DNA of 64,000 bases, taken from a bacterium (GTDB lineage Bacteria; Patescibacteriota; UBA1384; CAILIB01). The position numbers and the translations under genes were made by a program. The stretch spans positions 66,039 through 130,038 of the forward strand of contig JBAXRQ010000001.1 in the NCBI GenBank assembly GCA_037131105.1. The letters run 5' to 3'. The notes beneath the pieces are model-generated. The model was given only the letters and a program-made list of their open reading frames with translations. It was not told where the DNA came from and did not search any database. Shown here in pieces: positions 6,776 through 47,765 of the stretch (position 1 is the stretch's first letter; the number at the start of each line of letters is the position of its first letter).

Positions 6776-7548
6776 TGTACGACGCCGCTAAGGCCTGATG
6801 GCGGGGTGCCTGCATTGATATTTCCATCCACGGTGGCCTGGATAGATCCGTACAGAATAATTTTGGCAAAGATGGTGATAATGAGACCGGCATAGACAGC
6901 GATGAGGATGGTCTTGGCCTTTTTGACGTTTGCCTCACTGGCAAAGCCGGCGATGTACAGGAGTCCGGCATAGACGGTGAAGATGACCGCAAGAGCGCCA
7001 GCCGCCCAGTTTATAAGGGTAAGCCCCTTGTAAGAGAAAAATCTGAAGACGTCCAGACCCCAGTCTGCCGGAGGACAGGCGTTGGCGCCGGTGGCGTCGG
7101 GGCGAAGGTTATCAGGAATAAGGGGAAATACTGTATTGGCTGCCGGTTCCAGCACTTCAATAGTGCAGCCAGTGATGGGGGCTGGTGGATCTGCGATGGG
7201 AAGCGGTGTAGCCGGCTTGGTGTCTGGCTTGGTGTCCGGTTTAGTACCAGGTTTGGTACCCGGTTTAGTACCCGGCTTGGTGCCCGGCGGATCAGCTGCC
7301 AGAGTCCGTGAACTGGATACATCGCCCAATGTTCGTTCCTGAATAGACACAGTCGAATCCACTACGGCGGCCTGTGGCTTGGTGACAGTAAGGGTGGGGG
7401 CCAGAGCAAAAAGCAGTAGGCTTCCCCCGATGGTGACGGGAACGCCAATCAAGGCTGTCTTTGACTGCCAGCCAGTAGGTCCGCCGCTGCTCCTGGGAGC
7501 CGGCTTTGAGTGGGGGAAGGATTTTCCGAGGAAGGACTTCTTGGGCAT
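6772..7548 (-). CDS. TrbC/VirB2-like membrane protein, paralogue 3, with K-P-G-T repeat linker
   Basis: C-terminal VYAGLLYIAGFASEANVKKAKTILIAV-TM module; start placed at the ATG at 7548 (MPKKSFLGK..., signal-like) rather than the ORF-track 7593 start, which overlaps the upstream gene. Confidence 0.55.
   Translation of the reverse strand: MPKKSFLGKSFPHSKPAPRSSGGPTGWQSKTALIGVPVTIGGSLLLFALAPTLTVTKPQAAVVDSTVSIQERTLGDVSSSRTLAADPPGTKPGTKPGTKPGTKPDTKPDTKPATPLPIADPPAPITGCTIEVLEPAANTVFPLIPDNLRPDATGANACPPADWGLDVFRFFSYKGLTLINWAAGALAVIFTVYAGLLYIAGFASEANVKKAKTILIAVYAGLIITIFAKIILYGSIQATVDGNINAGTPPSGLSGVVQ
7213..7288 (-). repeat. 12-nt x 6 in-frame tandem repeat encoding (K/D)PGT
   Basis: ggcttggtgtct / ggtttagtacc(a/c) units on the + strand. 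Confidence 0.8.
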
Positions 7549-7549
7549 G

Positions 7550-7864
7550 CTACCTGAAGAGGTGGGTGATAAACCTGACGATGATGGCGGCAAAGACTAT
7601 AAGAAATATACCAAGAACCAGGTTCAATAAGTTCTTCTTGGCGGTAGTCCAGGCCTCAGGCTTGCCTGCCGAAGTGAGTAGAAGCCAGGCACAGAAGAGC
7701 AGGCACAGAAAGCCGAGCGGATAGGCGGCGAAGGTCAGCAGGTCGAGAGCCCGATTGAAGAGGTCGGGTACAGTTGTGACCGTTCCTGGTCCTGGAATGG
7801 TCAGAACGGCATCATCGGCATGGGCCGTCCCGATACCTAGCAGCAGTGTGAAGAATGGGTTCAT
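7550..7864 (-). CDS. TrbC/VirB2-like small membrane protein, paralogue 4
   Basis: signal peptide ...TAHA; LLLTSAGKPEAWTTAKKNLLNLV-TM module. Confidence 0.6.
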   Translation of the reverse strand: MNPFFTLLLGIGTAHADDAVLTIPGPGTVTTVPDLFNRALDLLTFAAYPLGFLCLLFCAWLLLTSAGKPEAWTTAKKNLLNLVLGIFLIVFAAIIVRFITHLFR

Positions 7865-7872
7865 GGCCAGAA

Positions 7873-9300
7873 CTAGGATGTGGGAACTGCGACTGGGTTC
7901 AGTAGGGTGTCTATCTGGTCGGCGGCAGTCTTGATGGCGTCAGCCGGGGAAATGCCGTTCTGGCTGACATTAACGATGGTTTGGTGGAAGGTTTGGTCAA
8001 ACTGGGTATGGCCTAGTTTGTAGGTGGTCTTGCCGGTGAGAATTTGCTTGCTCAGGAAGTCGCTGGAACTGTTCTGGTCCAAAGTAGCCGCAAATGGTGA
8101 CTTGAGCTTCAGTTCGCTGGCTAGGCCCTTGGCCATGGCTTGGTTGGTGTAAAGTTTCATAAAGGCAAAGGCGGCGGCTGGATTGTCGGCAGTCTTGGTG
8201 ACGGTCTCAAGAGAGAAACGGATCCAGTTTACTGGAGTCTGCGATACGCTTACCTGCGGCACAGGGCTAATTTGGGGACTGAAGTGAGGGTATTTTACTT
8301 TGAGTTTTTGTCCGAAGTCGGAGTACGCGACCACCATGGCAAGCTTTCCCTGGGCAAAGGCGTCGAGAGCGTCCGGCATGGAAGGGTTCCAGGAGTAGGT
8401 AGCCTTGCTAGGATCTGAGAACGAGGAGAAGAAGGAGAGGGCATTCTCACCTGGGCGTACCTGTCCTCCAGAAGGAGTGGTGGTGGGAACATGGAAAAGT
8501 GGGTTCTTGTGGTCGTCACTGACTATCTTGGCACCGTTCTGGCTGATCAGAAGTTCCAAAGTATCTTGGGCATTGGGAATGTTGTCGGCGGTACCGAGAG
8601 CGATGGCGGAGCGGGTGATGGTATTGCCGTTACGAATGGTAATGTACTTGACGTCATTGACTACATCGTCCCAGGTGGCCGGGGGATTATTCAATAGTAA
8701 GCGAACTGGTTGGTATAAGGCGTCGCTGAAATTGGTTCCGAGTGACTTGCGATAATCTTGTAGGGCTTGACTGAAGACGTCTTGGTTTACATAGAGCCTG
8801 AGAGTATCGACATTGGTAGGTAGGCCGTAGACATGGGTGCCGTCGGCACTGATGATCTGGCTGGAGATGCCGACAGGGTACAGTTTCTTCACTTCGTCCA
8901 CCGGCTTGGGGCTGCCGGTCACCTGGCTGAAGAAGTCGTCGGGGAGAGGCTGGACCTGGTCCTGGTAGTCGCCTATCCAGTCGTTGGGGATGCTCCAGAT
9001 ATCCGGCCCCTGCCTTCCGGCGAGCGACTTCAGGGAGGCAAATTCGTAGTTATCGATAGTTCGGTTCTGGTAGCTGACCTTGGTAGCTGTGTGGTCCTTC
9101 TGGAACTGAGTAATGGTGTCACGGAAGGAGTCGACTGCCTGGCCTACCCGCCAGATACGGATCAGGTTGGTATGGGGGGTGCTAGTACCGGTAGTGCTGC
9201 AGCCGGTCGCCACAAGGCCGAAAATGCCGATGAGGCCGACAGTGGCTCCCTTGGAGAGCTTCAGCCTCAGTTTTTTTGATGGTGAGTGGTGCTGCCCCAT
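7873..9300 (-). CDS. lipoprotein, extracellular solute-binding protein (ABC family-1-like), orphan
   Basis: lipobox LVATGC; PDIWSIPNDWIGDY and LYVNQDVF resemble sugar-binding proteins; no permease or ATPase adjacent. Confidence 0.55.
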   Translation of the reverse strand: MGQHHSPSKKLRLKLSKGATVGLIGIFGLVATGCSTTGTSTPHTNLIRIWRVGQAVDSFRDTITQFQKDHTATKVSYQNRTIDNYEFASLKSLAGRQGPDIWSIPNDWIGDYQDQVQPLPDDFFSQVTGSPKPVDEVKKLYPVGISSQIISADGTHVYGLPTNVDTLRLYVNQDVFSQALQDYRKSLGTNFSDALYQPVRLLLNNPPATWDDVVNDVKYITIRNGNTITRSAIALGTADNIPNAQDTLELLISQNGAKIVSDDHKNPLFHVPTTTPSGGQVRPGENALSFFSSFSDPSKATYSWNPSMPDALDAFAQGKLAMVVAYSDFGQKLKVKYPHFSPQISPVPQVSVSQTPVNWIRFSLETVTKTADNPAAAFAFMKLYTNQAMAKGLASELKLKSPFAATLDQNSSSDFLSKQILTGKTTYKLGHTQFDQTFHQTIVNVSQNGISPADAIKTAADQIDTLLNPVAVPTS

Positions 9301-19199: not shown

Positions 19200-21059
19200 T
19201 TATTCAAGGCCGGGAGTCAGCTGTTTCATACGTTCCTGAAAGCGTTTGTTTTGCTGTGCTTGCTGATATAGGTTTGGAAATCTTTTGAGATGGTCAAGGG
19301 CGAGTATCTGCAGTTCGTCGTCGTCAAACGTTACGCAGCTAAGGGATATCTCGCCAAGGTCATCCTTTCGATACAGGCTGTCAAATACTGCTCTCATGTC
19401 GATGCCTAGTTCAGGGTACTCTTTCTGGAGACTGAAGAGAGTCCCGGTCTTGCTGGAGGTAAATATTCTCTTAGTTGTGTTGGGGATCTCAGCGGCTAAA
19501 TAGGGGATAAGTGTTGGAGGTAGGTTCTGGGTGGTGCCGGTGGTTAGGATGAAGTCAAGAACATTACGGGCAAAGACGGCTTGTTGGGCCTCAACTGTGG
19601 AGTGGCCGCCGGCATCCTTCCGGGAAGCGCTTTCTATTCTTTGTGCGTAGTAGGCCATGATGGCATGGATCGCCTCGGGGTCTGGGTTGCGTCTTAGCTG
19701 GTCTTCGTAGGCTTGAACTATGGGTTCCATGCGAGTCGGGGTATAGTCCAGATCGTACATTTCGCCGGTTTTGAGGTTCTCTTTTGCCCAGGTTGCATCA
19801 ACGACCGTGACTTCGCCGGAGCCGTCCTTTGTGACGGTGAGAAAGCTGTTCCAGGCATGGGATGTGTCGAGGTTTTCCTTTCCGGGCGCATAGTCGTGGC
19901 CGCTGCTGTATATACAGTGGGTGTTGCGAAGCTGGTTGAGCTCTTTCTGGCTTGCCTTTAGTGCGTTGAAGACATCCAGTACGGCTGCGGCAAAGTTTCG
20001 ACAGACCCCGTTTCCTTTCCAATCAGGATCGCTACGATTGATTAGTCCTTCCTCCAATAGCTCGATGGTGGAGCTGGTGTCGGCGGACGTAGGGGCATAC
20101 CGTTCTGTTATCTCCCCTTTCTCATCTCTCTTCACCCGCTCTGATTTATAGTCGGCGTAGTATTTTCTGAGCTTGACTATCAGAGAGGTCGATAGCTCGG
20201 CCGCTTGCCGGGGGCTCAACTCGCGCAGGTTGGTGATCCCGATCTGGCGGGCAAGTTCGGGCTCTTCCTGGAGCAAATAGCCTTGCACAAAGCGGTAGAG
20301 CTCTCGTTCCCACCCCTCTCGTTTCATGGTCTCACTGTGGGTGGCCACTCTCGTAAGCTCACGCTCGTACTCGCCTCTTACACCCCCGATCTGGGAGTGA
20401 GCGTAAGCGTTATCAGAGGTGTAAAACTTATCCCCGAGCTCCTTGCTGATGGGGTATTCCTGGTCAGTAGGCGAAGGCTGAGGGTCGTAGCCGTTGAAAT
20501 CCACGAACGAGACGGTAGTGTTTGGGTCGGGCTTGAAGCGGAGCAGGGGGCTGTGACTGAGCTGTTCCTCGTAGTGGGCCCGTTGGTCGATGTAGCAGTG
20601 TCTGGCTTCTTCCCAGGTCGCACAACGTGAGCTCCCGATGACCAGTTCACCACTTTCCAGGTCAACTAGCTGGGGGTAGACTACGGCATACGTTCCATCC
20701 GGCTTTTTCTCAATGCTGCAGTTCACCGTATAGGTCGCGGCCAGCTCTTTCTGGTCGTAATATTCGCGCATGAGGGTTCGTTTCTGCATCCAGTCACCTG
20801 CTCCTTTCTGGATGTCGGCTTGTGCCTGCATGTCGATCTGAGAGTCAGCTGCGGCACGCTCGGCACTTTCGCGGTCAAAAAACCCTTCGGTGGCGGTACC
20901 GATTATTCTTCCGTTGAAATCGGTGAGCCCTGGGAGAATTGCCTCGAAGGCGCCGCTTGCAGTCTCTCGCACTTCATACAATGCGGAAAGACCCCGCTGT
21001 TCCGGCCTAGGTGTCTCGGCGTCTTTAACCGGTGGTGCTTCGTGCTCGTAACTCATCAC
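19200..21059 (-). CDS. large cytoplasmic protein with central transglutaminase-like cysteine-protease core
   Basis: GNGVCRNFAAAVLDVF (Cys), about 39 aa later SHAWNSFL (His), about 17 aa later VVDATW (Asp): spacing typical of the transglutaminase-like superfamily; about 340-aa N-terminal and 200-aa C-terminal regions unrecognised; no signal peptide. Confidence 0.6.
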   Translation of the reverse strand: MMSYEHEAPPVKDAETPRPEQRGLSALYEVRETASGAFEAILPGLTDFNGRIIGTATEGFFDRESAERAAADSQIDMQAQADIQKGAGDWMQKRTLMREYYDQKELAATYTVNCSIEKKPDGTYAVVYPQLVDLESGELVIGSSRCATWEEARHCYIDQRAHYEEQLSHSPLLRFKPDPNTTVSFVDFNGYDPQPSPTDQEYPISKELGDKFYTSDNAYAHSQIGGVRGEYERELTRVATHSETMKREGWERELYRFVQGYLLQEEPELARQIGITNLRELSPRQAAELSTSLIVKLRKYYADYKSERVKRDEKGEITERYAPTSADTSSTIELLEEGLINRSDPDWKGNGVCRNFAAAVLDVFNALKASQKELNQLRNTHCIYSSGHDYAPGKENLDTSHAWNSFLTVTKDGSGEVTVVDATWAKENLKTGEMYDLDYTPTRMEPIVQAYEDQLRRNPDPEAIHAIMAYYAQRIESASRKDAGGHSTVEAQQAVFARNVLDFILTTGTTQNLPPTLIPYLAAEIPNTTKRIFTSSKTGTLFSLQKEYPELGIDMRAVFDSLYRKDDLGEISLSCVTFDDDELQILALDHLKRFPNLYQQAQQNKRFQERMKQLTPGLE

Positions 21060-21125: not shown

Positions 21126-21752
21126 ATGAAATACCAGGTGCCTGCACTCTACAAGCGCATAGATGCCTTTGCCAAGACCCCGGCCAATGCCCTGGTCGCC
21201 TTTCTATGGGGGGTATGCGAGGGGATATTCTTCTTTATAGTACCGGATGTCTACTGCGCCTATATCACGCTTTTCAACCGAAGAGCCGGCTGGACCGCTA
21301 TAGGCTTTTCAATCCTGGGTACCCTTCTGGCCTCGGTGGTCATGTATGCAGTCGTAGTGCTGGCGGGCAACGGGATCATTACCTACCTTCTGCACGTGCC
21401 TGAGATTAGCCGCCCCATGCTGGATACTGTTTCGAATACGCTAGCGGCTGGGGGCCTGGCGGGGCTGGGGAAGCTGCACATCTCCCGGCTGATACTGGGG
21501 GCCATTCCCAGTAAGGTGTATTCGAGCTTGGCGGCGCTTGCCGGAATACCCCTGTGGGCCTTTCTGCTCTGGACCATTCCTATGCGTATTCTGAGGCTTT
21601 CTTGGGCCATGCTGCTTTCCACCTGGCTGAATGGCAGATATAGCGCTAGTATTAAGGCGCATACCAAATCCTGGACCGTGGGGTATGTCATATTCTGGAC
21701 CGTGTTGCACGCATCATACTATGTAGTCGTCGCCCTTAGCTTTCACCAGTAA
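21126..21752 (+). CDS. hypothetical polytopic membrane protein
   Basis: 5-6 TM; first gene of the phospholipid cluster. Confidence 0.5.
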   Translation: MKYQVPALYKRIDAFAKTPANALVAFLWGVCEGIFFFIVPDVYCAYITLFNRRAGWTAIGFSILGTLLASVVMYAVVVLAGNGIITYLLHVPEISRPMLDTVSNTLAAGGLAGLGKLHISRLILGAIPSKVYSSLAALAGIPLWAFLLWTIPMRILRLSWAMLLSTWLNGRYSASIKAHTKSWTVGYVIFWTVLHASYYVVVALSFHQ

Positions 21753-21763
21753 CTGAAATTATC

Positions 21764-22363
21764 ATGGGTATCTACTCGGTAAAGCCAAAGTTTCAGAAGA
21801 TTCTTACCCCGGTGAAAGACCTGCTGGTGAGGGGAAAGGTGCATCCGACCACCATCAATATCATCGGGCTGGCGATCTCGCTCCTGGCGGGCATAGCGCT
21901 TTATTACTCAGGACAGTATGCCCTGCTGCTCTGGTACATCCCGGTGGCCGGCTTTGTGCGTACTGCCTGTAACGCCTTGGATGGCCTGGTTTCAAGAGAG
22001 CTGGGGGAGGCCTCGGCCTTTGGGGAGGTGCTCAATGAGTTCATTGACCGCATATCCGACTCGGCTATCTTTCTCGGCGTCACGTTCTCGGCATTAGCTG
22101 ATATGCGACTGGGGATAGTTACTCTGGTAGTTATCCTGCTGAACAGCTATCTCAGCATCGTCAGCAAGGCAGCTGGCGGTAGTAGGCAGTACGGAGGCAT
22201 CATGGGTAAGGCCGATAGGATGATCTACCTCGGTATCGCTGCGGTGGCTGTAGCTGTGAGCGGTTATACGGAGATCTGGAATTATTTCCTTGTCTTTATT
22301 CTAGCCGGCACTATGATTACCATGTACCAGCGCTTCATGGTCACCCGCAAGGAGCTTGCCTAG
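21764..22363 (+). CDS. CDP-alcohol phosphatidyltransferase family protein
   Basis: DG(x2)AR(x8)G(x3)D(x3)D motif: NALDGLVSRELGEASAFGEVLNEFIDRISD. Confidence 0.75.
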   Translation: MGIYSVKPKFQKILTPVKDLLVRGKVHPTTINIIGLAISLLAGIALYYSGQYALLLWYIPVAGFVRTACNALDGLVSRELGEASAFGEVLNEFIDRISDSAIFLGVTFSALADMRLGIVTLVVILLNSYLSIVSKAAGGSRQYGGIMGKADRMIYLGIAAVAVAVSGYTEIWNYFLVFILAGTMITMYQRFMVTRKELA

Positions 22364-23315
22364 TATGGAGGGCCTCTTTGCGAATCCGCTGGCAAATCCC
22401 ATTTTCATCCCCCTGATGACCAGGATGTTGGTGCTCTTTTCGGCCGGCTTCCTGATCCTGTTGGCACTGAAGAAGGGTAATTATGCTGCCCTGATGGGCT
22501 CGAACCTCGGCCAGCGTTACGTTGGCTGGCTCATTCTTTTTCCGATCTACGTGGTAGGCACCTTTTTCGGTGCTCTTTTTGGTCATATCGTACTCTTTGC
22601 TTTTATGTACCTGGCCTTGGCCGAGATAGTCAGGGTCTCGGGACTTTCGCGGGCGTACCACGTCGCCTTGGTGGTTCTCTCGATCTATAGCCTGTTCATC
22701 GCTGCCTTGCATCCTGAGTATTTCTTCTCCCTCCCCTTGGTGTACTTCATTGTCCTCACCCTGGTCGCTATCCGGTCCAATGACGCTGAAAAGGGTCTGC
22801 AGCAGGCGGCCGTCTCCCTATTCGTGGCCATCTGGATTATCTTCAGCATGAGTCATATCGACCTACTGGCCCACCTGAACAACCATCTTGATCAGACCAG
22901 TAGCTTGGTCTTCCTGGTGATCTTCGCGGTGGCCCTGGCCGATATCGGAGGATATATCTTCGGCAAGACGTTTGAGAAGCTGCATTTCTTTGATGCCTAC
23001 AAAATCGCTCCCAACCTTAGTCCAAATAAGACGTATGCGGGGACGCTGGGCTATATGATTGGCGCCGGCATCGGTATCGCCTTCCTCTACTTCGCGGTGG
23101 GAGGGTACCTGGCCCCTCCGCTCTGGGTTGTTGTAGCTGTTCTGATTGGCTTGTTCGCTCCGGTCGGGGGGATGACTCACTCGCTTTTCAAACGTTTTTA
23201 CGGTGTGAAGGACAGCGGTAGCCTGATTCCCGGACACGGCGGTATCCTGGACCGGGTAGACAGCATGGTCCGCGTAGTGGTCATCCTCTATTATTTCTTC
23301 CGACTATTCCTCTAG
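22356..23315 (+). CDS. cdsA: phosphatidate cytidylyltransferase
   Basis: SPNKTYAG...KRFYGVKDSGSLIPGHGGILDRVDS signature. Confidence 0.85.
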   Translation: MPSMEGLFANPLANPIFIPLMTRMLVLFSAGFLILLALKKGNYAALMGSNLGQRYVGWLILFPIYVVGTFFGALFGHIVLFAFMYLALAEIVRVSGLSRAYHVALVVLSIYSLFIAALHPEYFFSLPLVYFIVLTLVAIRSNDAEKGLQQAAVSLFVAIWIIFSMSHIDLLAHLNNHLDQTSSLVFLVIFAVALADIGGYIFGKTFEKLHFFDAYKIAPNLSPNKTYAGTLGYMIGAGIGIAFLYFAVGGYLAPPLWVVVAVLIGLFAPVGGMTHSLFKRFYGVKDSGSLIPGHGGILDRVDSMVRVVVILYYFFRLFL

Positions 23316-23642
23316 GAGGGTCACGGTGGCGATAGCATAGTCGCAGTCATGGGAGATGCTGCAGTCTAGTGAGAGAATGGTTTTTTGGTGGGCTTCGGGG
23401 GATATCTTAAGGGACGGTTTGCCGTTTTCAGCATAGATGACCTCGATATCCAGCCAGCTGCCAGCTTTGAGCCCGAACGCCTTGAGAGCGGCCTCCTTCA
23501 GGGCGAAGACTCCTGCCGCATGCAGGGGATCGCGGCGGCGCAGCTCCCCGGGATGAAATATGCGGAAACTCGAGGCTTCGCTTTCTATAAGGGGAAGGAC
23601 ACGATCTATCTTCACGATGTCGCAGCCGGTAGAAATAGTCAT
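23304..23642 (-). CDS. acpS: holo-[acyl-carrier-protein] synthase (4'-phosphopantetheinyl transferase)
   Basis: start at internal M (MTISTGCDIVKI), AGVFALKEAALKA, SISHDCDYAIATV; ORF-track start at 23753 adds 37 non-conserved residues. Confidence 0.75.
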   Translation of the reverse strand: MTISTGCDIVKIDRVLPLIESEASSFRIFHPGELRRRDPLHAAGVFALKEAALKAFGLKAGSWLDIEVIYAENGKPSLKISPEAHQKTILSLDCSISHDCDYAIATVTLLEE

Positions 23643-26101
23643 AACTCTTCCACCATCTTCTGGATCGCTTCGGTCGCTTGGATATAGGAAAGGGTTCTGG
23701 AAAGCGTGACCGGGGACCCGATTGTGACCGTAGTAGTTCCTTTTTTTGGCCAATGAGAGCCTTTAGGGAGAAGGTTCTGGTTTCCCTGCATCTTAATAGG
23801 AACGATAGGGCCCCCGAGTTCCAGGGCGGCCAGTCCTATACCATGTTTGAAGGCGCCGAGTCTGCCAGTAGTGCTGCGGGTTCCCTCAGGATAGATCAGT
23901 ACCGAGTAGCCGCGGTCCAGGAAGGCTCCCATGGCGGCAATGCTGCTGCCGGCATTTCCGTCCCGGTCGACGGGGAAGGCATTGAAGAGTAGTCGGGCCC
24001 AGAACGAGCGGATCCTGGTTTTGAAGAAGTAATCCTTGGCAGCGGCGGTAGCTAGATGGTCACTGATGCCAAAAGGCAGGGACCGCAGAACGGTAGGGGT
24101 GTCGAAATGACTGGTATGGTTGGCGACGAAGATAGACGGTTGCTGAGGCATTTCGCCCACCAGTCTGACCTGAAGCCGCTGGTAATACCAGACAAAGACC
24201 ACAATGGGAACGCGAAGGATGACGCGGATAAAGCCTATTCCCCATGAGAGTGGCCAAAGGACTATGGGCTGTCCGCTTAGTTCAGCGGCCTTTCCGACCT
24301 TGACCAAGTTTGCCAGTTGACCGACGCTGGTGGTCTGGTCGAGCTCATCCTCGCTCAATACGGTCCCTAGATCTTCTTCAATCTGGGAAAGAAGCTCTAG
24401 CCGTTTGATTGAATCAAGACCAAGGTCAGCCACTAACAATTGGGAATCCGCCAAGGTGTCAGGCGCTACCGAGCAGACGCGGGAAAGAATAAGAAAAAGG
24501 GCTGAGACATCCTTGCCAGTGTCACTGTGGGCTAGCGTCTTGTCGTCATGCGACTGCTCTAGCCGCTTCCTTATCTCCTCCCTACGGACTTTGCGGGTGG
24601 TGGTGCGGGGAAAGTCCTCATCAGGCCAAGGGATTATCTCGCGTAGGGTCTGGTGCGAAGCCAGGCGTCCGTTTAGGGTGACTGCCATCTCTTTCAGGTC
24701 GGGCTGTCCGACGGAAATGACCGTGGCTACCAGTTGAATCTCGCCGTGGCGCTCTATACCGGTTACCACGCTGTCACGCACCGTAGAGAGTCCGTTTAAG
24801 AGCTTTTCGATGTCTTCCGGGTGCACCTTCATTCCCGAACTAGTAATGATCATGGTCTTGATGCGGCCTTTCAGTCGCAGGTAGCCATCAGAGCCAAGCT
24901 CGCCAATATCGCCGGTTTTGAACCAGCCTTCCGGGGTAAGGGTCGCTGCGGTAGCCTCGGGGTTCTGCCAATAGCCCTTAAAGATGTGCGACCCCTTGAG
25001 CTGGATCTCGCCGCCTTCGGCAAGGGTCAGCTCTTGTTCGGGAAGTGGTCTGCCGACGGTCCCGGCCTGATAGAAGAGCAGGCTACTTGAGGTGACGGCG
25101 GGACTGCTTTCGGTCATCCCGTAGCCTTGCAGAACGTGGATGCCTAGCCTTTCCCAAAAGTCTTCGACTTCGGTGGGAAGGGGGGCGCCGGCTACAGTAA
25201 AGAAGATAAGTCTGCCGCCGAGGCTTCGGTGGATGCCATGGAAGAGTCGTCGTCGAAAGGACCGGGGAAGGCGGCCGGCCAGGTGTAATGCTCGCTCGAG
25301 CTGCTTGCTGCGGCCTTGTTCGCTAGCCTCCTGGACGATGCGATGCTGCATAAGCTCAAGAAATGCCGGCACGGTCACCATGGTGGTAGGCCGTTCCAGT
25401 CTGAGGCTGCGGCGAATCTCCACTGGCCTAACCGATATCGGATAGATCACTGGGCTGCCGCAGGCAAAGGGTACGAACAGGCCGAGAGTCTGCTCGAACA
25501 TATGGCTGAGAGGTAGGGTGGAAAGGAGCCTGTAGTCGTTGCCAATCTCCCAGGCCTGTCTGAGTGAGGTTATGTCGGAAAGGATATTGCCATGGCTGAG
25601 CATCACTCCTTTGGGCGTCCCAGTGCTGCCTGAAGTGTAAACAATCTCGAGTAGATCATCGGGCTCGGTGGCTATGGTAGTGGTGTGACGGGGAAGCCCA
25701 CTTATGAGGGAGGGGAGCTCTTCAAGGGGAACGACCATGGCGTTTGTGGGGAAGAAGGACTGTTTGAAGAGTGAGGTGAAACAGAGCTTGGGAGAGGTCT
25801 GCTTTAGAACGCTGTCGATAAAATCGGGCGTGGAGTTTAGATCCAAGGGCACCGCGATGACACCTAGCTTGGCGCAGGCGAGGAAGGCGGCCACCCAGAG
25901 GGGGCTGTTAGTGCCACAGATCACTACTCGGTCTCCCTTGCGGAGGTGGCCGTATTCAAGCAGTGTTGCTATGCGGGCCGATACCTGCAAAATCTGCTCA
26001 TAGCTCCATTCAATGCGGCGATAGCGTCGTCGTTCGATGAAGGCTGTCTGAGATCCGCGTCCAGCCGCCGTATTCTCTAGGTAGTGAAAAAGATTCTCCA
26101 T
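23639..26101 (-). CDS. three-domain fusion: acyl-AMP/acyl-CoA ligase + phosphopantetheine carrier domain + PlsC-type acyltransferase
   Basis: YTSGSTGTPKGV AMP-binding box; LGLDSIKRLEL carrier motif with Ser; NHTSHFD (HX4D) and YPEGTRS acyltransferase motifs. Confidence 0.8.
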   Translation of the reverse strand: MENLFHYLENTAAGRGSQTAFIERRRYRRIEWSYEQILQVSARIATLLEYGHLRKGDRVVICGTNSPLWVAAFLACAKLGVIAVPLDLNSTPDFIDSVLKQTSPKLCFTSLFKQSFFPTNAMVVPLEELPSLISGLPRHTTTIATEPDDLLEIVYTSGSTGTPKGVMLSHGNILSDITSLRQAWEIGNDYRLLSTLPLSHMFEQTLGLFVPFACGSPVIYPISVRPVEIRRSLRLERPTTMVTVPAFLELMQHRIVQEASEQGRSKQLERALHLAGRLPRSFRRRLFHGIHRSLGGRLIFFTVAGAPLPTEVEDFWERLGIHVLQGYGMTESSPAVTSSSLLFYQAGTVGRPLPEQELTLAEGGEIQLKGSHIFKGYWQNPEATAATLTPEGWFKTGDIGELGSDGYLRLKGRIKTMIITSSGMKVHPEDIEKLLNGLSTVRDSVVTGIERHGEIQLVATVISVGQPDLKEMAVTLNGRLASHQTLREIIPWPDEDFPRTTTRKVRREEIRKRLEQSHDDKTLAHSDTGKDVSALFLILSRVCSVAPDTLADSQLLVADLGLDSIKRLELLSQIEEDLGTVLSEDELDQTTSVGQLANLVKVGKAAELSGQPIVLWPLSWGIGFIRVILRVPIVVFVWYYQRLQVRLVGEMPQQPSIFVANHTSHFDTPTVLRSLPFGISDHLATAAAKDYFFKTRIRSFWARLLFNAFPVDRDGNAGSSIAAMGAFLDRGYSVLIYPEGTRSTTGRLGAFKHGIGLAALELGGPIVPIKMQGNQNLLPKGSHWPKKGTTTVTIGSPVTLSRTLSYIQATEAIQKMVEEL

Positions 26102-26131: not shown

Positions 26132-27268
26132 TCACTTGGTATATAAGTAAAAAAAGTCTTTTTCGTAGCCGTGTAGGTAGGCCTTGCCCCCGTCTGTTAG
26201 TCCTTTGACCAGCGGGGACCAGGTGTATCCGCCTCCTGTATAATCATACACCATGAACCTGACCCAGAAATCGTTGATGTCGAGCTGCATGGCATTCTGA
26301 CTACCGGCCAGGCGTAAGGCGTCAGCGAGGGAAGTCGGGGTGAGCGAAGGCCCGACTGCATAGACCAGATCTCCGTCTGCCGTCACCCCTAGTCCAGACC
26401 TCCAAGTGACATAGCCTCCGGCCGCCGTGCCGGCCCAGAGGTCTATGCCGTGGGAGGTATTCTGGGCAGTCTTACCGTTAATGACCAAGAGGGGGCCGTT
26501 CTGGCGGGCGGCAATGACGTCAGAAGGTAGAGGAGTGCCTTCATAGGTAGTCAACTCGGTATGACCGTCGGCATATATGAGAAAGATGCTCAGGCCCTTC
26601 CGGAAGGGAACGTAGGTAGTGCCATCGGCGTACATGCCGTAGTGCCCGTCCTTCCCCTGGAATCCTCCGTTAAAGGCGGCGATGAGTCGGCCGCTATCTT
26701 GTATTGCCTGGGGGACCTTGCCCGGACCGGGTGCTCCGCCGGGGTACTTGGTGCCGGCCACCTCGTTGATACCTACCAGCTTCGAGGGGATCTCAACCAG
26801 ATTGACCACCGCAAACGGCCGCTCCTGATCGGTACGGATAAAGGTGGTAAACAACGGCGTCCCGGCAATGCCGCGCCAGACCCCTTCCCCGGCCAGCGGA
26901 TGGGTGATGTCAATAATGGGCGTGATAGGTGTCGGGGGTGGATTCGGGTCGGGAGTAGAGGCGGCCAGTGGCTCAGTAGTGGGGACCGGAACGGTCTTCA
27001 CGTCTACGGCATAAGCGGTAGTATCAGGGAGGTGGCCTAAGTGACGCTTGATCCTGTCCTGTAGTCCAAAGACGGCCCCCTCAAGGGAAATTACCGCCTT
27101 GTCACCGATGAGGGGTCGCAGAACGTTATCGGTGAAGGTGGCCGCTCCGGCCGGATTTTTGGAGAGATACAGCAGTCCGCCGCCCGAGACCATAATAAAA
27201 AAGACCAGGATGCCGCCGGTGGTATAAGCGGTAAGCCGCCAGGTGCGGGGAGATATGCGCATGACCAA
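26132..27268 (-). CDS. phosphodiester glycosidase-family (DUF2233-like) exported protein
   Basis: N-terminal TM anchor; AAFNGGFQGKDG...VINGK resembles the NAGPA-like domain. Confidence 0.45.
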   Translation of the reverse strand: MVMRISPRTWRLTAYTTGGILVFFIMVSGGGLLYLSKNPAGAATFTDNVLRPLIGDKAVISLEGAVFGLQDRIKRHLGHLPDTTAYAVDVKTVPVPTTEPLAASTPDPNPPPTPITPIIDITHPLAGEGVWRGIAGTPLFTTFIRTDQERPFAVVNLVEIPSKLVGINEVAGTKYPGGAPGPGKVPQAIQDSGRLIAAFNGGFQGKDGHYGMYADGTTYVPFRKGLSIFLIYADGHTELTTYEGTPLPSDVIAARQNGPLLVINGKTAQNTSHGIDLWAGTAAGGYVTWRSGLGVTADGDLVYAVGPSLTPTSLADALRLAGSQNAMQLDINDFWVRFMVYDYTGGGYTWSPLVKGLTDGGKAYLHGYEKDFFYLYTK

Positions 27269-27279
27269 ACTATACAGGT

Positions 27280-28233
27280 TTGGTCACCGGCTTGTATACT
27301 TGGGGCATGTCAAAACCCAGAAAAAAGCGGATACGCTGGATACGGGTCTTTACCCTACTGTGTGTAGTGGTTTTGGTGGCGGGCGCCGGGACGTATTGGT
27401 ACGGGAGAAAGGGCGGGGAGCCCGTCGTGGTGTTGGCGACTCCGACTCCGACTGCCCTTGTGACAGCTGATGCTGTGGCCACACCTTCGTCCACTCCGAC
27501 GCTTGCAGCTTCAGCTACTCCGTTTGCGGTCCAAATTTCTGTGGTCAAGATCGCATTGCAAAAAGCGATCTCCGCCCATCCTGAGCTTATAGTTGGCGCC
27601 AGTTTTATTGACCTGAATACCGGCACCCGTACCGATGTGAACGGCGACCGGGTCTTCACGGCGGCCAGTACCACTAAAGCCCTCATCGCCTGCCTGGTGC
27701 TTTCCCAGGTGGAGGCGGGGAAACATAGTCTGAGTGATCCGCTGGATGGGGGCACGGTGAAGTCACATCTGCAGCGTATGATAAACCAGAGCAACAATGA
27801 CTCCTGGATGGATTTGATGCAGTTCATTGGCTACTCCTACCAGATTCCCTACGCCAAGAGTATCGGCATTACTACCTATGACTTTCAGAATAACCGGATC
27901 TCGCCCAATGACGACGCCCTCCTGCTTTCGAAGTTGTATGCCGGCAAGCTGCTAAACCAGGCCGATACGGCCTTGTTGCTTTCCTATATGCATGACACCA
28001 ACTTCGACTATCTGATCCCGCCGGCCGTGCCAAAGGGGGTGAAGGTGTTTCACAAGTACGGGGACTATGAGGACGGGCTCCATGATACGGCTATCATCGA
28101 CGACGGGAAGAATCCCTTCGTACTTACGATCTATACCAACAGCACCAGCGGCGGCCTGGGGTATGAGGTCCGCTACCCGGCCTTTCAAGAGATTACCAAG
28201 GCGGTGGAGGAGGCGATGAATGTGCAGCTTTAG
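27280..28233 (+). CDS. class A beta-lactamase-like serine hydrolase, membrane-anchored
   Basis: FTAASTTK (SxxK), SNND (SDN-like), HKYGD (KTG-like) triad positions; Thr/Pro linker after TM. Confidence 0.6.
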   Translation: MVTGLYTWGMSKPRKKRIRWIRVFTLLCVVVLVAGAGTYWYGRKGGEPVVVLATPTPTALVTADAVATPSSTPTLAASATPFAVQISVVKIALQKAISAHPELIVGASFIDLNTGTRTDVNGDRVFTAASTTKALIACLVLSQVEAGKHSLSDPLDGGTVKSHLQRMINQSNNDSWMDLMQFIGYSYQIPYAKSIGITTYDFQNNRISPNDDALLLSKLYAGKLLNQADTALLLSYMHDTNFDYLIPPAVPKGVKVFHKYGDYEDGLHDTAIIDDGKNPFVLTIYTNSTSGGLGYEVRYPAFQEITKAVEEAMNVQL

Positions 28234-45875: not shown

Positions 45876-45994
45876 GAGTCCTTTTCCGGGAGGGTTGGCT
45901 AGGACGTGAGCGGTATCCTCTGTGCGCGTCCCGCACCAGCGAAGGTCTTCCTCGTAGTGCTCCCGATTGAGTTTCAGGCAAAGTTGTTTGTTGT

Positions 45995-46024
45995 TTGCAT
46001 CCCCTTGCCGTTCTCCTCTATACT
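45995..46024 (+). promoter_or_regulatory. sigma70-like promoter TTGCAT-18-TATACT
   Basis: upstream of the 46056 start, which has an AAAGGGGGG SD. Confidence 0.45.
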
Positions 46025-46055
46025 GAACCTAGAACGTTTGAGCCTAAAGGGGGGA

Positions 46056-47765
46056 ATGCCACACGCAACTATTGAGCAACATGTGCAGAAGCTGGACGAG
46101 CGCGTTGAGCGTCTGGAACGTCGTGTAGACGCTTCCTGGCATCGTCGTCTCCTTGCCTCCATTCGTGCTCTGACCCCTGGTGAGGTTTTGCATATGACTG
46201 GTTGGCTGCTTGTGACCGTCTCTGCTCTTTCCCTCTTTGCCACCAACGACAGCGCCGACACCAGCGTGCTGGTTTCCTGCGTCGGTCTGCTGGCCGGATT
46301 GTGGCTAGTATTTAGGGACTCTTCCTGGCCTCGCATCAGCCAGTCTACTCGTCATCTACTCCAAGAGGAGCGCAGTGCTCGTCGCATTCATGCTACTAGC
46401 CAGCACCAGCCGTTCTTTTCCTTTGCCAAAGAGGACACATCCTGGCAGGCTATGACTGGTTACTACCTAGTTCTAGCTGCTTCGCTCTTATTTGCTCTAG
46501 TGTATGCATGGTTGGTTCTCACCTATCTTCCTGAAGGTGCTTGGCAGCTATGGGGGGCATTGCTGGTGCCTACCGTGGGTCTGGCCTATTCCCTAGCTGG
46601 CTCTCATCGCTCACTACTGTACTTCTCCTTGGTCGCTGTCTTCTTGCTGCTGAGCTTCACCCAGGCTCCGCTCTTTGCCCTGGGATATCTTACCCTTCTG
46701 GCCCTAGCCTTCGTCGCGTGGGTCTGGATGAGCCGTGATTGGCCCTCTCTGCTTCTGGTAGTGGCAGGAAGTTACGCAGTACTTGCTCGCTGGGCACTCT
46801 ATCCTGAAAGCTCCGCCACCATTTTGATGGTACTGCTGACTTCCCTCATCCTTTCGCTTGCCTTCGTACTTCCTTTTGCTCTGTTCCGCCGCGAGGCTGC
46901 GAATCGAGAGTTTGTCCGCCGGACCATATTTGGTAGCGTGGCGGCTTTCGTGCTGTTGCCCCTCCTACTACCTGGTAATCCTGTTTTCTCAGTAGCCTGG
47001 ATGGAGTCAGCCGGCCTGTATCTGCTAGTACTTATTGCTTTGGGCCTCATTAGCCTTATGCGCTACGGACGCTATTCCTTTGCCAAGTACTACGGCATAG
47101 CGGCTTTGGGACTACTCATGCTGGTGGCGCTGCTGGCGGGCAATACCGGGCTTACTAGTATCCTCTGGTTTGCCGTAAGTATCATTGCCCTGGGACTGGG
47201 CTTCTCAGTAGGGAGCTACAGCGTACGTACCGTCGGGCTCTGCTTGCTCGGGCTTACGCTTCTCTATTATCTTTCCGCCATTTTCCCCTATCCTACTTTG
47301 GTTCCCGGTCCCTTCCTGCTCCAGCAGCGTATCTGGCTGGGGGCAATATTTGCGCTGTTCCTTCCGGTGCTTGGGTTCTGGTATCGCGACCTTCCGGCTG
47401 GTGAGCCTGAGACGGCCGAGCGAAGCTATATCATTGAGCTGCTCTATGTAGGGTCCTTCATGCTGCTGCTTGGCATCGGCTGGGTTGGCTTTCAGGCTCC
47501 GGCCCAGACTGTATTTTGGTTGGTAGTGGGAGGTGTGTACCTCCTGGCTGGGCGTATTCAGAAGCTGCAGGTGGTCCAGTCTTTGGCTATCGCTGGGATG
47601 CTTTCGGGACTGGGCAAATACTTCTTCTTTGACAGCCTTTCATTGCCAAGAGAGGATCGCATTGCCATGCTGGCTGGGTTCGCTGTGTTGGCGCTACTGG
47701 CGGGCGTGCATCTCATCAGACATGTTTCCAAACCTCATATTACCCGTAAGTCAGAAACCCTATGA
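46056..47765 (+). CDS. large polytopic membrane protein with N-terminal coiled coil (DUF2339-like)
   Basis: start at M51 of the ORF-track ORF (good SD and promoter); at least 14 TM. Confidence 0.5.
   Translation: MPHATIEQHVQKLDERVERLERRVDASWHRRLLASIRALTPGEVLHMTGWLLVTVSALSLFATNDSADTSVLVSCVGLLAGLWLVFRDSSWPRISQSTRHLLQEERSARRIHATSQHQPFFSFAKEDTSWQAMTGYYLVLAASLLFALVYAWLVLTYLPEGAWQLWGALLVPTVGLAYSLAGSHRSLLYFSLVAVFLLLSFTQAPLFALGYLTLLALAFVAWVWMSRDWPSLLLVVAGSYAVLARWALYPESSATILMVLLTSLILSLAFVLPFALFRREAANREFVRRTIFGSVAAFVLLPLLLPGNPVFSVAWMESAGLYLLVLIALGLISLMRYGRYSFAKYYGIAALGLLMLVALLAGNTGLTSILWFAVSIIALGLGFSVGSYSVRTVGLCLLGLTLLYYLSAIFPYPTLVPGPFLLQQRIWLGAIFALFLPVLGFWYRDLPAGEPETAERSYIIELLYVGSFMLLLGIGWVGFQAPAQTVFWLVVGGVYLLAGRIQKLQVVQSLAIAGMLSGLGKYFFFDSLSLPREDRIAMLAGFAVLALLAGVHLIRHVSKPHITRKSETL

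Follow-up and report, generated by a model that had tools for sequence, protein, structure and literature searches.

A ligase–carrier–acyltransferase fusion with a probably coupled AcpS gene in a Patescibacteria contig, and its proposed role in fatty acid salvage into phospholipids

The window analyzed here is a stretch of 64,000 nucleotides from the patescibacterial contig JBAXRQ010000001.1, and the element in question is a gene at positions 23639 to 26101 that encodes an adenylate-forming ligase, a carrier domain and a PlsC-type acyltransferase in a single polypeptide. A sequence-only reading of the window had pointed out this fusion and given these coordinates, which do delimit one open reading frame (ORF), but the strand needs correcting to minus. 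On that strand the ORF list and the translation give an uninterrupted frame from Met1 to the TGA, i.e., a single ORF of 820 codons; a plus-strand reading of the same interval was rejected because of its many stops. The identical protein is present in the public databases as P0001, under the name 'MAG: AMP-binding protein [bacterium]'. The gene and the parts of its product are as follows.

23639 to 26101, minus strand: tri-domain protein gene (ligase, carrier, acyltransferase), 820 aa, ATG at 26101 and TGA at 23639-23641
24560 to 26077, minus strand: ANL (adenylate-forming) ligase domain, residues 9-514, from Pfam PF00501 and motifs
24302 to 24490, minus strand: carrier (thiolation, PP-binding) domain, residues 538-600, from Pfam PF00550
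24185 to 24247, minus strand: hydrophobic helix GIGFIRVILRVPIVVFVWYYQ, residues 619-639, from the secondary structure of the model, preceded by W615
23789 to 24151, minus strand: PlsC/LPLAT-type acyltransferase domain, residues 651-771, from Pfam PF01553

All four motifs quoted in the sequence-only reading occur in the translation, YTSGSTGTPKGV at residues 154-165, LGLDSIKRLE at 559-568 with Ser563, NHTSHFD at 660-666 and PEGTRS at 737-742. The Pfam calls bear out the order of ligase, carrier and PlsC-type acyltransferase, and the sizes that had been given (about 520, 80 and 200 aa) were right. The protein is an adenylation–thiolation–acyltransferase (A-T-AT) fusion with the anatomy first described for it, built like a small nonribosomal peptide synthetase (NRPS) module (A-T-X) that ends in a PlsC-type acyltransferase. 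Judged by sequence comparison, its domain scores and its conservation lie far beyond chance.

In the ligase domain, the AMP-binding family PF00501 covers residues 9-378 (E 1.9e-67, 228 bits), and AMP-binding_C_3 follows at residues 417-514 as a weak match under its cut-off. The N-terminal subdomain (9-378) is assigned the P-loop T155-S-G-S-T-G-T-P-K-G, the A5 motif GYGMTE (325-330) and the A7 motif TGD (395-397), and the C-terminal subdomain (about 417-514) carries the A10 lysine K503. Both the P-loop (T155-G164) and K503 are invariant in an alignment of 111 homologous sequences with 35-43% identity to the query, on which all conservation counts given below are based. Sequence matches of the ligase in the PDB lie at about 1e-39 to 1e-44 and include 8WEU (7e-44), MatB (4FUQ) and FadD13 (3R44, 6e-39). 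The fatty acyl-AMP ligase (FAAL) 3PBK matches at 4e-22, against 7e-44 for 8WEU, and no FAAL is found among the top 50 Foldseek matches of the structural model in the PDB. By similarity, the ligase domain thus appears closer to the CoA-ligase-type ANL enzymes than to the FAALs, in which a specific insertion blocks the use of CoA.

The carrier domain matches PF00550 over residues 538-600 (E 2e-9, 38 bits against a cut-off of 20.8), with Ser563 (codon 24413-24415) as the predicted phosphopantetheine attachment site. An alignment had been proposed as the check on this serine, and it is present in all 111 homologues; Asp562 is kept in 108 of them, and the D-S-L/I motif is intact. The AlphaFold2 model, which was built on the same alignment (mean pLDDT 89.7, pTM 0.85), shows carrier helices at 533-542, 563-577 and 592-603 and places Ser563 at the N-terminus of the second of these in the fashion of carrier proteins. 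Its confidence dips only in the linker between ligase and carrier (residues 520-529) and in the one between carrier and acyltransferase (about 601-610). When compared to the PDB with Foldseek, the model comes within 3-5 Å rmsd of structures in the thioester-forming or thiolation state, among them the MenE ternary complex (5X8F), 4CL with AMP and CoA (5BSR) and the second conformation of luciferase (4G37), as well as the NRPS structures holo-EntF (5T3D, 647 columns, 4.9 Å) and LgrA (5ES8, 638 columns). Adenylation-state structures fit at 10-12 Å only, and the carrier is therefore predicted by the model to dock on the ligase as in the A-T pairs of NRPS.

The genes next to the fusion are those called in the public record of the identical contig, and three of them are needed for what follows.

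23304 to 23642, minus strand: AcpS-type 4'-phosphopantetheinyl transferase gene, 112 aa, from the gene call, Pfam ACPS and TIGR00556
22356 to 23315, plus strand: CdsA (phosphatidate cytidylyltransferase), Pfam PF01148 at 4.9e-44
21764 to 22363, plus strand: CDP-alcohol phosphatidyltransferase, Pfam PF01066, just upstream of CdsA

The AcpS assignment is above the cut-off in both databases (PF01648, 40 bits against 25; TIGR00556, 58 bits against 45). The ATG of this gene overlaps the TGA of the fusion in an ATGA sequence (junction …TTATGA…), so that the cognate phosphopantetheinyl transferase expected of a carrier-dependent enzyme is present at its very stop codon. From this arrangement the directly downstream AcpS gene is probably translationally coupled to the fusion, and it is the strongest supporting feature for a carrier-dependent enzyme. 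AcpS and CdsA are convergent and share 12 nt at their 3' ends (23304-23315), leaving no space for a terminator; a convergent overlap of 15-24 nt is seen between the same two genes in the relatives L082, L083 and L087.

The similarity of the ligase to CoA ligases such as FadD13, MatB and feruloyl-CoA synthetase could be taken to mean that it is an ordinary acyl-CoA synthetase, that the acyltransferase uses acyl-CoA, and that the carrier is vestigial or serves another enzyme. The label 'long-chain acyl-CoA synthetase', which JGI gives to members of the family, agrees with such an assignment. A vestigial carrier is, however, difficult to reconcile with the invariant serine and the intact motif around it, with an AcpS gene that is probably coupled here, overlaps the stop codon in three of the four closest relatives looked up and stands beside the fusion in all loci from Patescibacteria, and with a model in which the carrier docks on the ligase in the manner of thiolation-state NRPS structures. 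This explanation is considered very improbable.

The C-terminal domain matches PF01553 over residues 651-771 (E 6.9e-18, 65 bits against a cut-off of 23) and shows the hallmarks of the PlsC/LPLAT superfamily, i.e., the HX4D motif and the PEGTR of motif III. Motif I reads N-H661-TSHF-D666, a motif II-like element F708-P-x-x-R712, and motif III P737-E-G-T-R741-S. His661 and Pro-Glu-Gly 737-739 are conserved in all 111 sequences and Asp666 in 110. The arginine of EGTR is kept in 42 of the 111, including the query, and is replaced by leucine in 63. In the GPAT and AGPAT enzymes this arginine binds glycerol-phosphate. The domain taken alone has a single solved relative, the PlsC of Thermotoga maritima (5KYM, E 9e-12 over 167 residues), and its best NCBIfam models are TIGR00530 AGP_acyltrn (53 bits, cut-off 102.95) and, behind it, models of the Aas type with 47 and 33 bits. 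These matches are of the lipid acyltransferase type, which upholds what the sequence-only reading had expected of this domain. The hydrophobic helix at 619-639 lies ahead of the acyltransferase core, and both W615 and R625 are conserved at 90% or more in the family. In analogy to the helices at the N-terminus of the T. maritima enzyme, this helix is probably a membrane-interface anchor.

The ligase–carrier–acyltransferase architecture is not rare but belongs to a large family. The best 120 homologues in the database are all 789-879 aa long, the nearest being 43-44% identical, and for almost all of them the three Pfam domains (PF00501, PF00550 and PF01553) are on record, PP-binding being missing from the record in about seven; the query shares the domain order and the catalytic residues of all three domains with the family. 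A scan with one genome per species yielded 79 loci, of which 75 have ORFs of 781-897 aa and four are longer owing to upstream in-frame start codons. Most of these loci are from Chloroflexota (Dehalococcoidia, Limnocylindria), and others from Patescibacteria, Saccharibacteria and Parcubacteria, Acidobacteriota, metagenome-assembled genomes (MAGs) of Verrucomicrobia and Spirochaetia, and one 'archaeon' MAG. The cultured species Geobacter argillaceus (ATCC BAA-1139, L054) and Geomonas oryzae (S43, L060) are also represented. Complete genomes with the fusion include a Parcubacteria chromosome (OY970378.1) and two chromosomes from Dehalococcoidia (OZ220748.1 and OZ252245.1). A HMMER search with the carrier–acyltransferase half (residues 530-819) gave 231 clusters (50% identity) at E <=1e-30, mostly of about 800-850 aa. 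Variants among the family include P0262 (1115 aa), in which Pfam finds two PF01553 domains in the order ligase, carrier, acyltransferase, acyltransferase, and the carrier–acyltransferase didomains P0134, P0156 and P0167 of about 295 aa that have no ligase.

An AcpS gene on the strand of the fusion and at most 14 nt away from it is found in seven of the 79 loci, and five more have one elsewhere in the fetched flanks. The seven include all five loci from Patescibacteria (L030, L032, L055, L061, L067), in which AcpS is found immediately upstream of the fusion, an arrangement that looks like a small fatty acid salvage operon. In one of these (L061), a 223-aa lipase-like alpha/beta hydrolase with weak PGAP1/LCAT matches is found ahead of AcpS. 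Among the four closest relatives looked up, AcpS overlaps the stop codon of the fusion in three (L082, L083, L087). The loci of P0005, P0009 and P0006 have the arrangement of the window, i.e., the fusion, a stop-overlapping AcpS and convergent CdsA and CDP-alcohol transferase genes, and that of P0003 shares the lipid genes, with AcpS at a distance of 4 kb. The flanks of the closest relatives (about 40-43% identity) are otherwise unrelated.

Besides the window, CdsA is found beside the fusion in ten further loci (L082, L083, L084, L085, L086, L087, L003, L006, L011 and L071), and in all of these except L085, where CdsA alone is next to the fusion, a CDP-alcohol phosphatidyltransferase gene accompanies it. 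In the window this transferase gene overlaps the listed TTG start of CdsA by 8 nt. Its best NCBIfam models are archaetidylinositol phosphate synthase (104 bits, cut-off 180) and phosphatidylinositol-phosphate (PIP) synthase (88 bits, cut-off 170), so that by similarity it is closest to the (archaetidyl/phosphatidyl)inositol-phosphate synthases, with both scores under the cut-off; it is called PIP-synthase-like below. The orientation of the partners varies. In P0016 CdsA lies 3 nt downstream of the fusion on the same strand, and in P0107 (Binataceae) the CDP-alcohol transferase overlaps the stop codon of the fusion and CdsA is convergent. In the Chloroflexota loci L003, L006, L011 and L071 a PIP-synthase-like gene and CdsA come after the fusion, in this order and on its strand, the former being directly next to the fusion in L006, L011 and L071 and about 2 kb downstream in L003. 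The EGTR form of motif III is kept in seven of the 79 loci, and four of the seven are these same loci with downstream PIP-synthase-like and CdsA genes. Since the same partners recur in three gene orders (convergent, co-directional and swapped), at about 37-43% identity and within unrelated flanks, there is good evidence that the fusion is functionally tied to the branch of phospholipid synthesis that leads from phosphatidate to CDP-diacylglycerol. The CdsA and CDP-alcohol phosphatidyltransferase neighbors point to phosphatidate synthesis and not to a repair of 2-acyl-glycerophosphoethanolamine as in Aas.

Several other observations were made around these loci. Two Chloroflexi MAGs from groundwater contain two paralogous tri-domain genes within about 5 kb (L003 3004-10520, L006 2702-10472), with an alpha/beta hydrolase gene of about 400 aa directly after the first paralogue and with the PIP-synthase-like and CdsA genes following; in L006 the second paralogue overlaps at its start with a PF12147 methyltransferase. 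These paralogues may acylate the two positions of glycerol. A 244-aa hydrolase of the metallo-beta-lactamase fold lies directly upstream on the same strand in 22 loci from Dehalococcoidia (among L005-L059; in L012 at 7187-7921) and nearby in 26 loci overall, which may reflect lineage synteny or mark it as a functional partner, for instance a thioesterase or phospholipase-like enzyme. In G. argillaceus (L054 10475-13111) a gene for a P-type cation ATPase starts at the last base of the fusion ORF, a position that is not conserved elsewhere.

For the fusion we infer the fatty acid substrate, the loading in cis, the lysophosphatidate acceptor, the membrane association and the physiological role. 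On balance, we think it probable that it forms a self-contained route from free fatty acid via an acyl-S-carrier to (lyso)phosphatidate, which feeds the synthesis of CDP-diacylglycerol. The probably co-translated AcpS would convert Ser563 to its holo (phosphopantetheinyl) form, and the ligase would use ATP to turn a free fatty acid into acyl-AMP, rotate to its thioester-forming state and load the acyl group onto the phosphopantetheine thiol of its own polypeptide. On its two flexible linkers of about 15-18 residues (residues ~515-532 and 604-618), the carrier would then swing to the acyltransferase domain, which helix 619-639 would hold at the membrane surface. There, the dyad of His661 and Asp666 would pass the acyl group to a glycerol-phosphate lipid precursor with a free hydroxyl, of which 1-acyl-glycerol-3-phosphate is the most likely, and the resulting phosphatidate would be converted to CDP-diacylglycerol by CdsA and further to a phosphoinositol-type lipid by the PIP-synthase-like enzyme.

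This route is favored because Ser563, K503 and the His661/Asp666/Pro-Glu-Gly residues are invariant or nearly so, because AcpS appears coupled and lipid genes are adjacent, because the acyltransferase matches PlsC 5KYM and because the carrier sits on the ligase in the model. A further reason is that the acyl-CoA synthetase (ACS) and acyl carrier protein (ACP) activities of ElbD from Myxococcus xanthus, whose A-T-AT core is homologous, were confirmed in vitro (PMC9131029). A number of points weigh against it. CdsA and the PIP-synthase-like gene of the window are on the opposite strand and are neighbors of the fusion, not members of its operon. The acyltransferase domain stays under every curated NCBIfam cut-off, so that the acceptor cannot be read from homology, and from the replacement of the motif III arginine by leucine in the greater part of the alignment, acceptors may differ between clades. 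Given the CoA-ligase-like sequence of the ligase, a release of the product as acyl-CoA is conceivable. The acyltransferase activity of ElbD was not detected in vitro (PMC9131029), and our literature search found no biochemically characterized tri-domain enzyme, only passing mentions (PMC9131029; PMC8460268).

The same features bear on the possibility that the acyltransferase acts on an acceptor other than lysophosphatidate, such as the head group of a finished phospholipid or a lyso form of it (inositol, lyso-phosphatidylinositol), glycerol-3-phosphate or an amino-lipid. An analogy can be drawn to the acyltransferase in the mycobacterial pgsA1 operon, and the neighbor in the window is specifically PIP-synthase-like. 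Equivalog cut-offs are reached by none of the models, and weak matches are found to Aas-type as well as lyso-ornithine-lipid acyltransferase models; the variation of motif III across the family suggests a diversity of acceptors, and the side-by-side paralogues of L003 and L006 or the two acyltransferase domains of P0262 would fit different acceptor positions. The most constant partner, however, is CdsA, whose substrate is phosphatidate, the clade of the query keeps the canonical arginine of EGTR, and the best relative in both structure and sequence is a genuine lysophosphatidate acyltransferase (5KYM). We regard a different acceptor as unlikely.

If the proposed mechanism is true, one polypeptide carries out steps that textbook bacteria divide among FadD or Aas, a soluble ACP and PlsC, and a fatty acid is placed in a membrane-lipid precursor without a released acyl-CoA or acyl-ACP. 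It would then bear on how membranes are made in the ultra-small bacteria of the candidate phyla radiation (CPR) and in other lineages poor in type II fatty acid synthesis (FASII), and the A-T-acyltransferase module would be an engineering part for loading chosen fatty acids into phospholipids. Patescibacteria/CPR have been reported to be without a complete lipid pathway and ACP machinery (PMC7242380). A wider and more tentative idea, which we hold to be doubtful, is that the tri-domain family and its private AcpS take free fatty acid to phosphatidate autonomously, dispensing with FASII-derived acyl-ACP, with PlsX/PlsY and with acyl-CoA. Were this so, it could be the main way in which CPR-type lineages build membranes from scavenged fatty acids, and in the clade of the window the fusion would be the dedicated point of entry to a module of four genes by which salvaged acyl chains are turned into an inositol-type phospholipid. 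For the window itself, the result is a well-supported upgrade of the annotation 'AMP-binding protein' and not a new kind of system.

The remaining neighborhood offers few further candidates. A 208-aa ORF at 21126-21752 on the plus strand, directly upstream of the PIP-synthase-like gene and on its strand, has no match in Pfam or NCBIfam; only L011 and L071 have homologues of it near the fusion, and it may also belong to the lipid module. On the other side, the NAGPA gene at 26132-27268, 30 nt from the start of the fusion, was rejected as a partner, being next to none of the 79 homologues. The 185-aa ORF at 27270-27827 on the minus strand was likewise rejected as a neighbor gene. It is not called in public assemblies and lies opposite a class-A beta-lactamase-like gene (PF13354) that the public calls place on the plus strand at 27280-28233, and it is probably a shadow ORF. 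Two GTG-start ORFs of 619 aa each, at 19200-21059 (minus strand) and 45906-47765 (plus strand), have no Pfam match and are unrelated to each other by BLASTP. There is no second tri-domain paralogue in the window as there is in L003 and L006, and the ORFs scanned in the rest of it are ordinary chromosomal ones (pyruvate kinase, DnaK, LepA, MurJ, FtsH, ComEC).

The closest described relative of the fusion, by sequence, is the ElbD type and not Aas. ElbD of M. xanthus (MXAN_1528, UniProt Q1DC43) consists of a reductase (FAR), an acyl-CoA synthetase, an ACP and an AGPAT-like acyltransferase (PMC9131029), and the query has the same ligase–carrier–acyltransferase core in the same order. The comparison was made with the ElbD-architecture proteins P0260 and P0236, not with the M. 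xanthus sequence itself; by Pfam, these are FAR-A-T-AT proteins of 1443 and 1568 aa. BLASTP aligns residues 11-819 of the query with the core of P0260 (31% identity, E 1e-118) and residues 57-818 with that of P0236 (32% identity, E 3e-103), and LGLDS, NHTSHLD and PEGTRS are shared in these alignments. What the query lacks is the N-terminal reductase (NAD_binding_4 and Sterile, about 560 aa, at residues ~15-540 of P0260 and P0236), as its ligase starts at residue 9 and all homologues align from the N-terminus. In a crude neighbor-joining tree, the ElbD-type proteins fall outside all tri-domain proteins. On this sequence evidence the query is placed in a reductase-less sister family of ElbD and is not considered an ElbD orthologue.

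This kinship raises the question whether the fusion is an ElbD-like component of ether-lipid synthesis, in which a separate reductase encoded elsewhere reduces the carrier-bound acyl group and the acyltransferase has an ether-lipid intermediate or dihydroxyacetone phosphate as its acceptor. Besides the end-to-end homology to the core of P0260 and P0236, such a role would agree with metagenomic lipid surveys, in which ElbD BLAST matches from Chloroflexota, DPANN and others are counted as ether-lipid potential, and with the reported variants in which the reductase (Re) and A-T-AT are split ('split elbD') (PMC11868695; bioRxiv 10.64898/2026.06.23.733905, the latter for the split variants). Pontiella, however, has ElbD homologues and no ether lipids were detected in it (PMC11868695). 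The elb operon context is also not found around the query: no reductase, ElbB-like haloacid dehalogenase (HAD) phosphohydrolase, ElbE/ElbA-like epimerase/dehydratase or AGPS appears in the gene calls up to 10 kb to either side or among the remaining window ORFs that were scanned, and there is no elbC-like neighbor. The conserved partners, AcpS, CdsA and the CDP-alcohol phosphatidyltransferase, are not elb genes. Together with the missing reductase domain and the separate clade of the ElbD-type proteins, this makes an ether-lipid role improbable, more so than a different acceptor, and the salvage of fatty acids into phosphatidate is preferred. If the proposed mechanism holds, surveys that currently score such reductase-less proteins as 'ElbD homologues' would over-call ether lipids, as the CdsA/AcpS context also argues, and these proteins should not serve as ether-lipid markers. 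The fusion as such is common and has already been mentioned in the literature, where ElbD-like homologues in other phyla are mostly without the FAR domain (PMC9131029) and bacterial fusions with lysophospholipid acyltransferases are given one sentence in a survey of FAALs (PMC8460268). New here are the stop-overlapping, probably coupled AcpS, the recurring and conserved four-gene lipid module of the fusion, AcpS, CdsA and a PIP-synthase-like transferase, and the argument against the use as an ether-lipid marker.

Aas, from Escherichia coli or in fusions with LplT, also combines an ANL ligase with a PlsC-family acyltransferase and re-esterifies free fatty acid via a phosphopantetheine thioester. 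It has no carrier domain of its own and uses free, soluble ACP, whereas the query carries a PP-binding domain with an invariant serine. The expected outcome would be the same, i.e., the salvage of free fatty acid into phospholipid without acyl-CoA or FASII-derived acyl-ACP, with the carrier of the query in cis. The contrast in domain order that the sequence-only reading had drawn is correct, since the NCBIfam Aas models have no carrier domain and place the acyltransferase N-terminal to the ligase (NF005959, 25-140 of 719; NF006386, 414-553 with the ligase at 777-892 of 1147), the reverse of the query. These models match both halves of the query weakly and their equivalog cut-offs are missed by far (NF005959, 19.9 bits against 886; NF006386, 169 for the whole protein against 1221; NF005291, 150 against 1349). 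With this order, these scores and its own carrier domain, membership in Aas is rejected, and the label 'Aas-like, reversed' holds as a fair functional analogy but not as a family assignment. An LplT-like partner was rejected as well. The fusion has no LplT-type transporter gene beside it, the major facilitator superfamily (MFS) gene that lies downstream of the homologue in Geomonas has matches to generic MFS families alone, and the family shows no conserved MFS neighbor.

With the PlsC of T. maritima (5KYM) the query shares HX4D, the motif II-like FPxxR, PEGTRS in motif III and a hydrophobic helix ahead of the core. PlsC stands alone and takes its acyl group from acyl-ACP or acyl-CoA, whereas the acyltransferase of the query follows a ligase and a carrier in one polypeptide, and its predicted donor is the carrier in cis. 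NRPS-type A-T modules such as EntF and LgrA, and carboxylic acid reductases, have the same succession of adenylation, thiolation and a releasing or transferring domain, and NRPS modules likewise need a phosphopantetheinyl transferase. Their terminal domain is a thioesterase, condensation or reductase domain and their ligase is of the amino-acid type, whereas the query ends in a PlsC-type lipid acyltransferase behind a ligase of the fatty-acyl/CoA-ligase type, and its genomic context is primary phospholipid metabolism and not a secondary-metabolite cluster.

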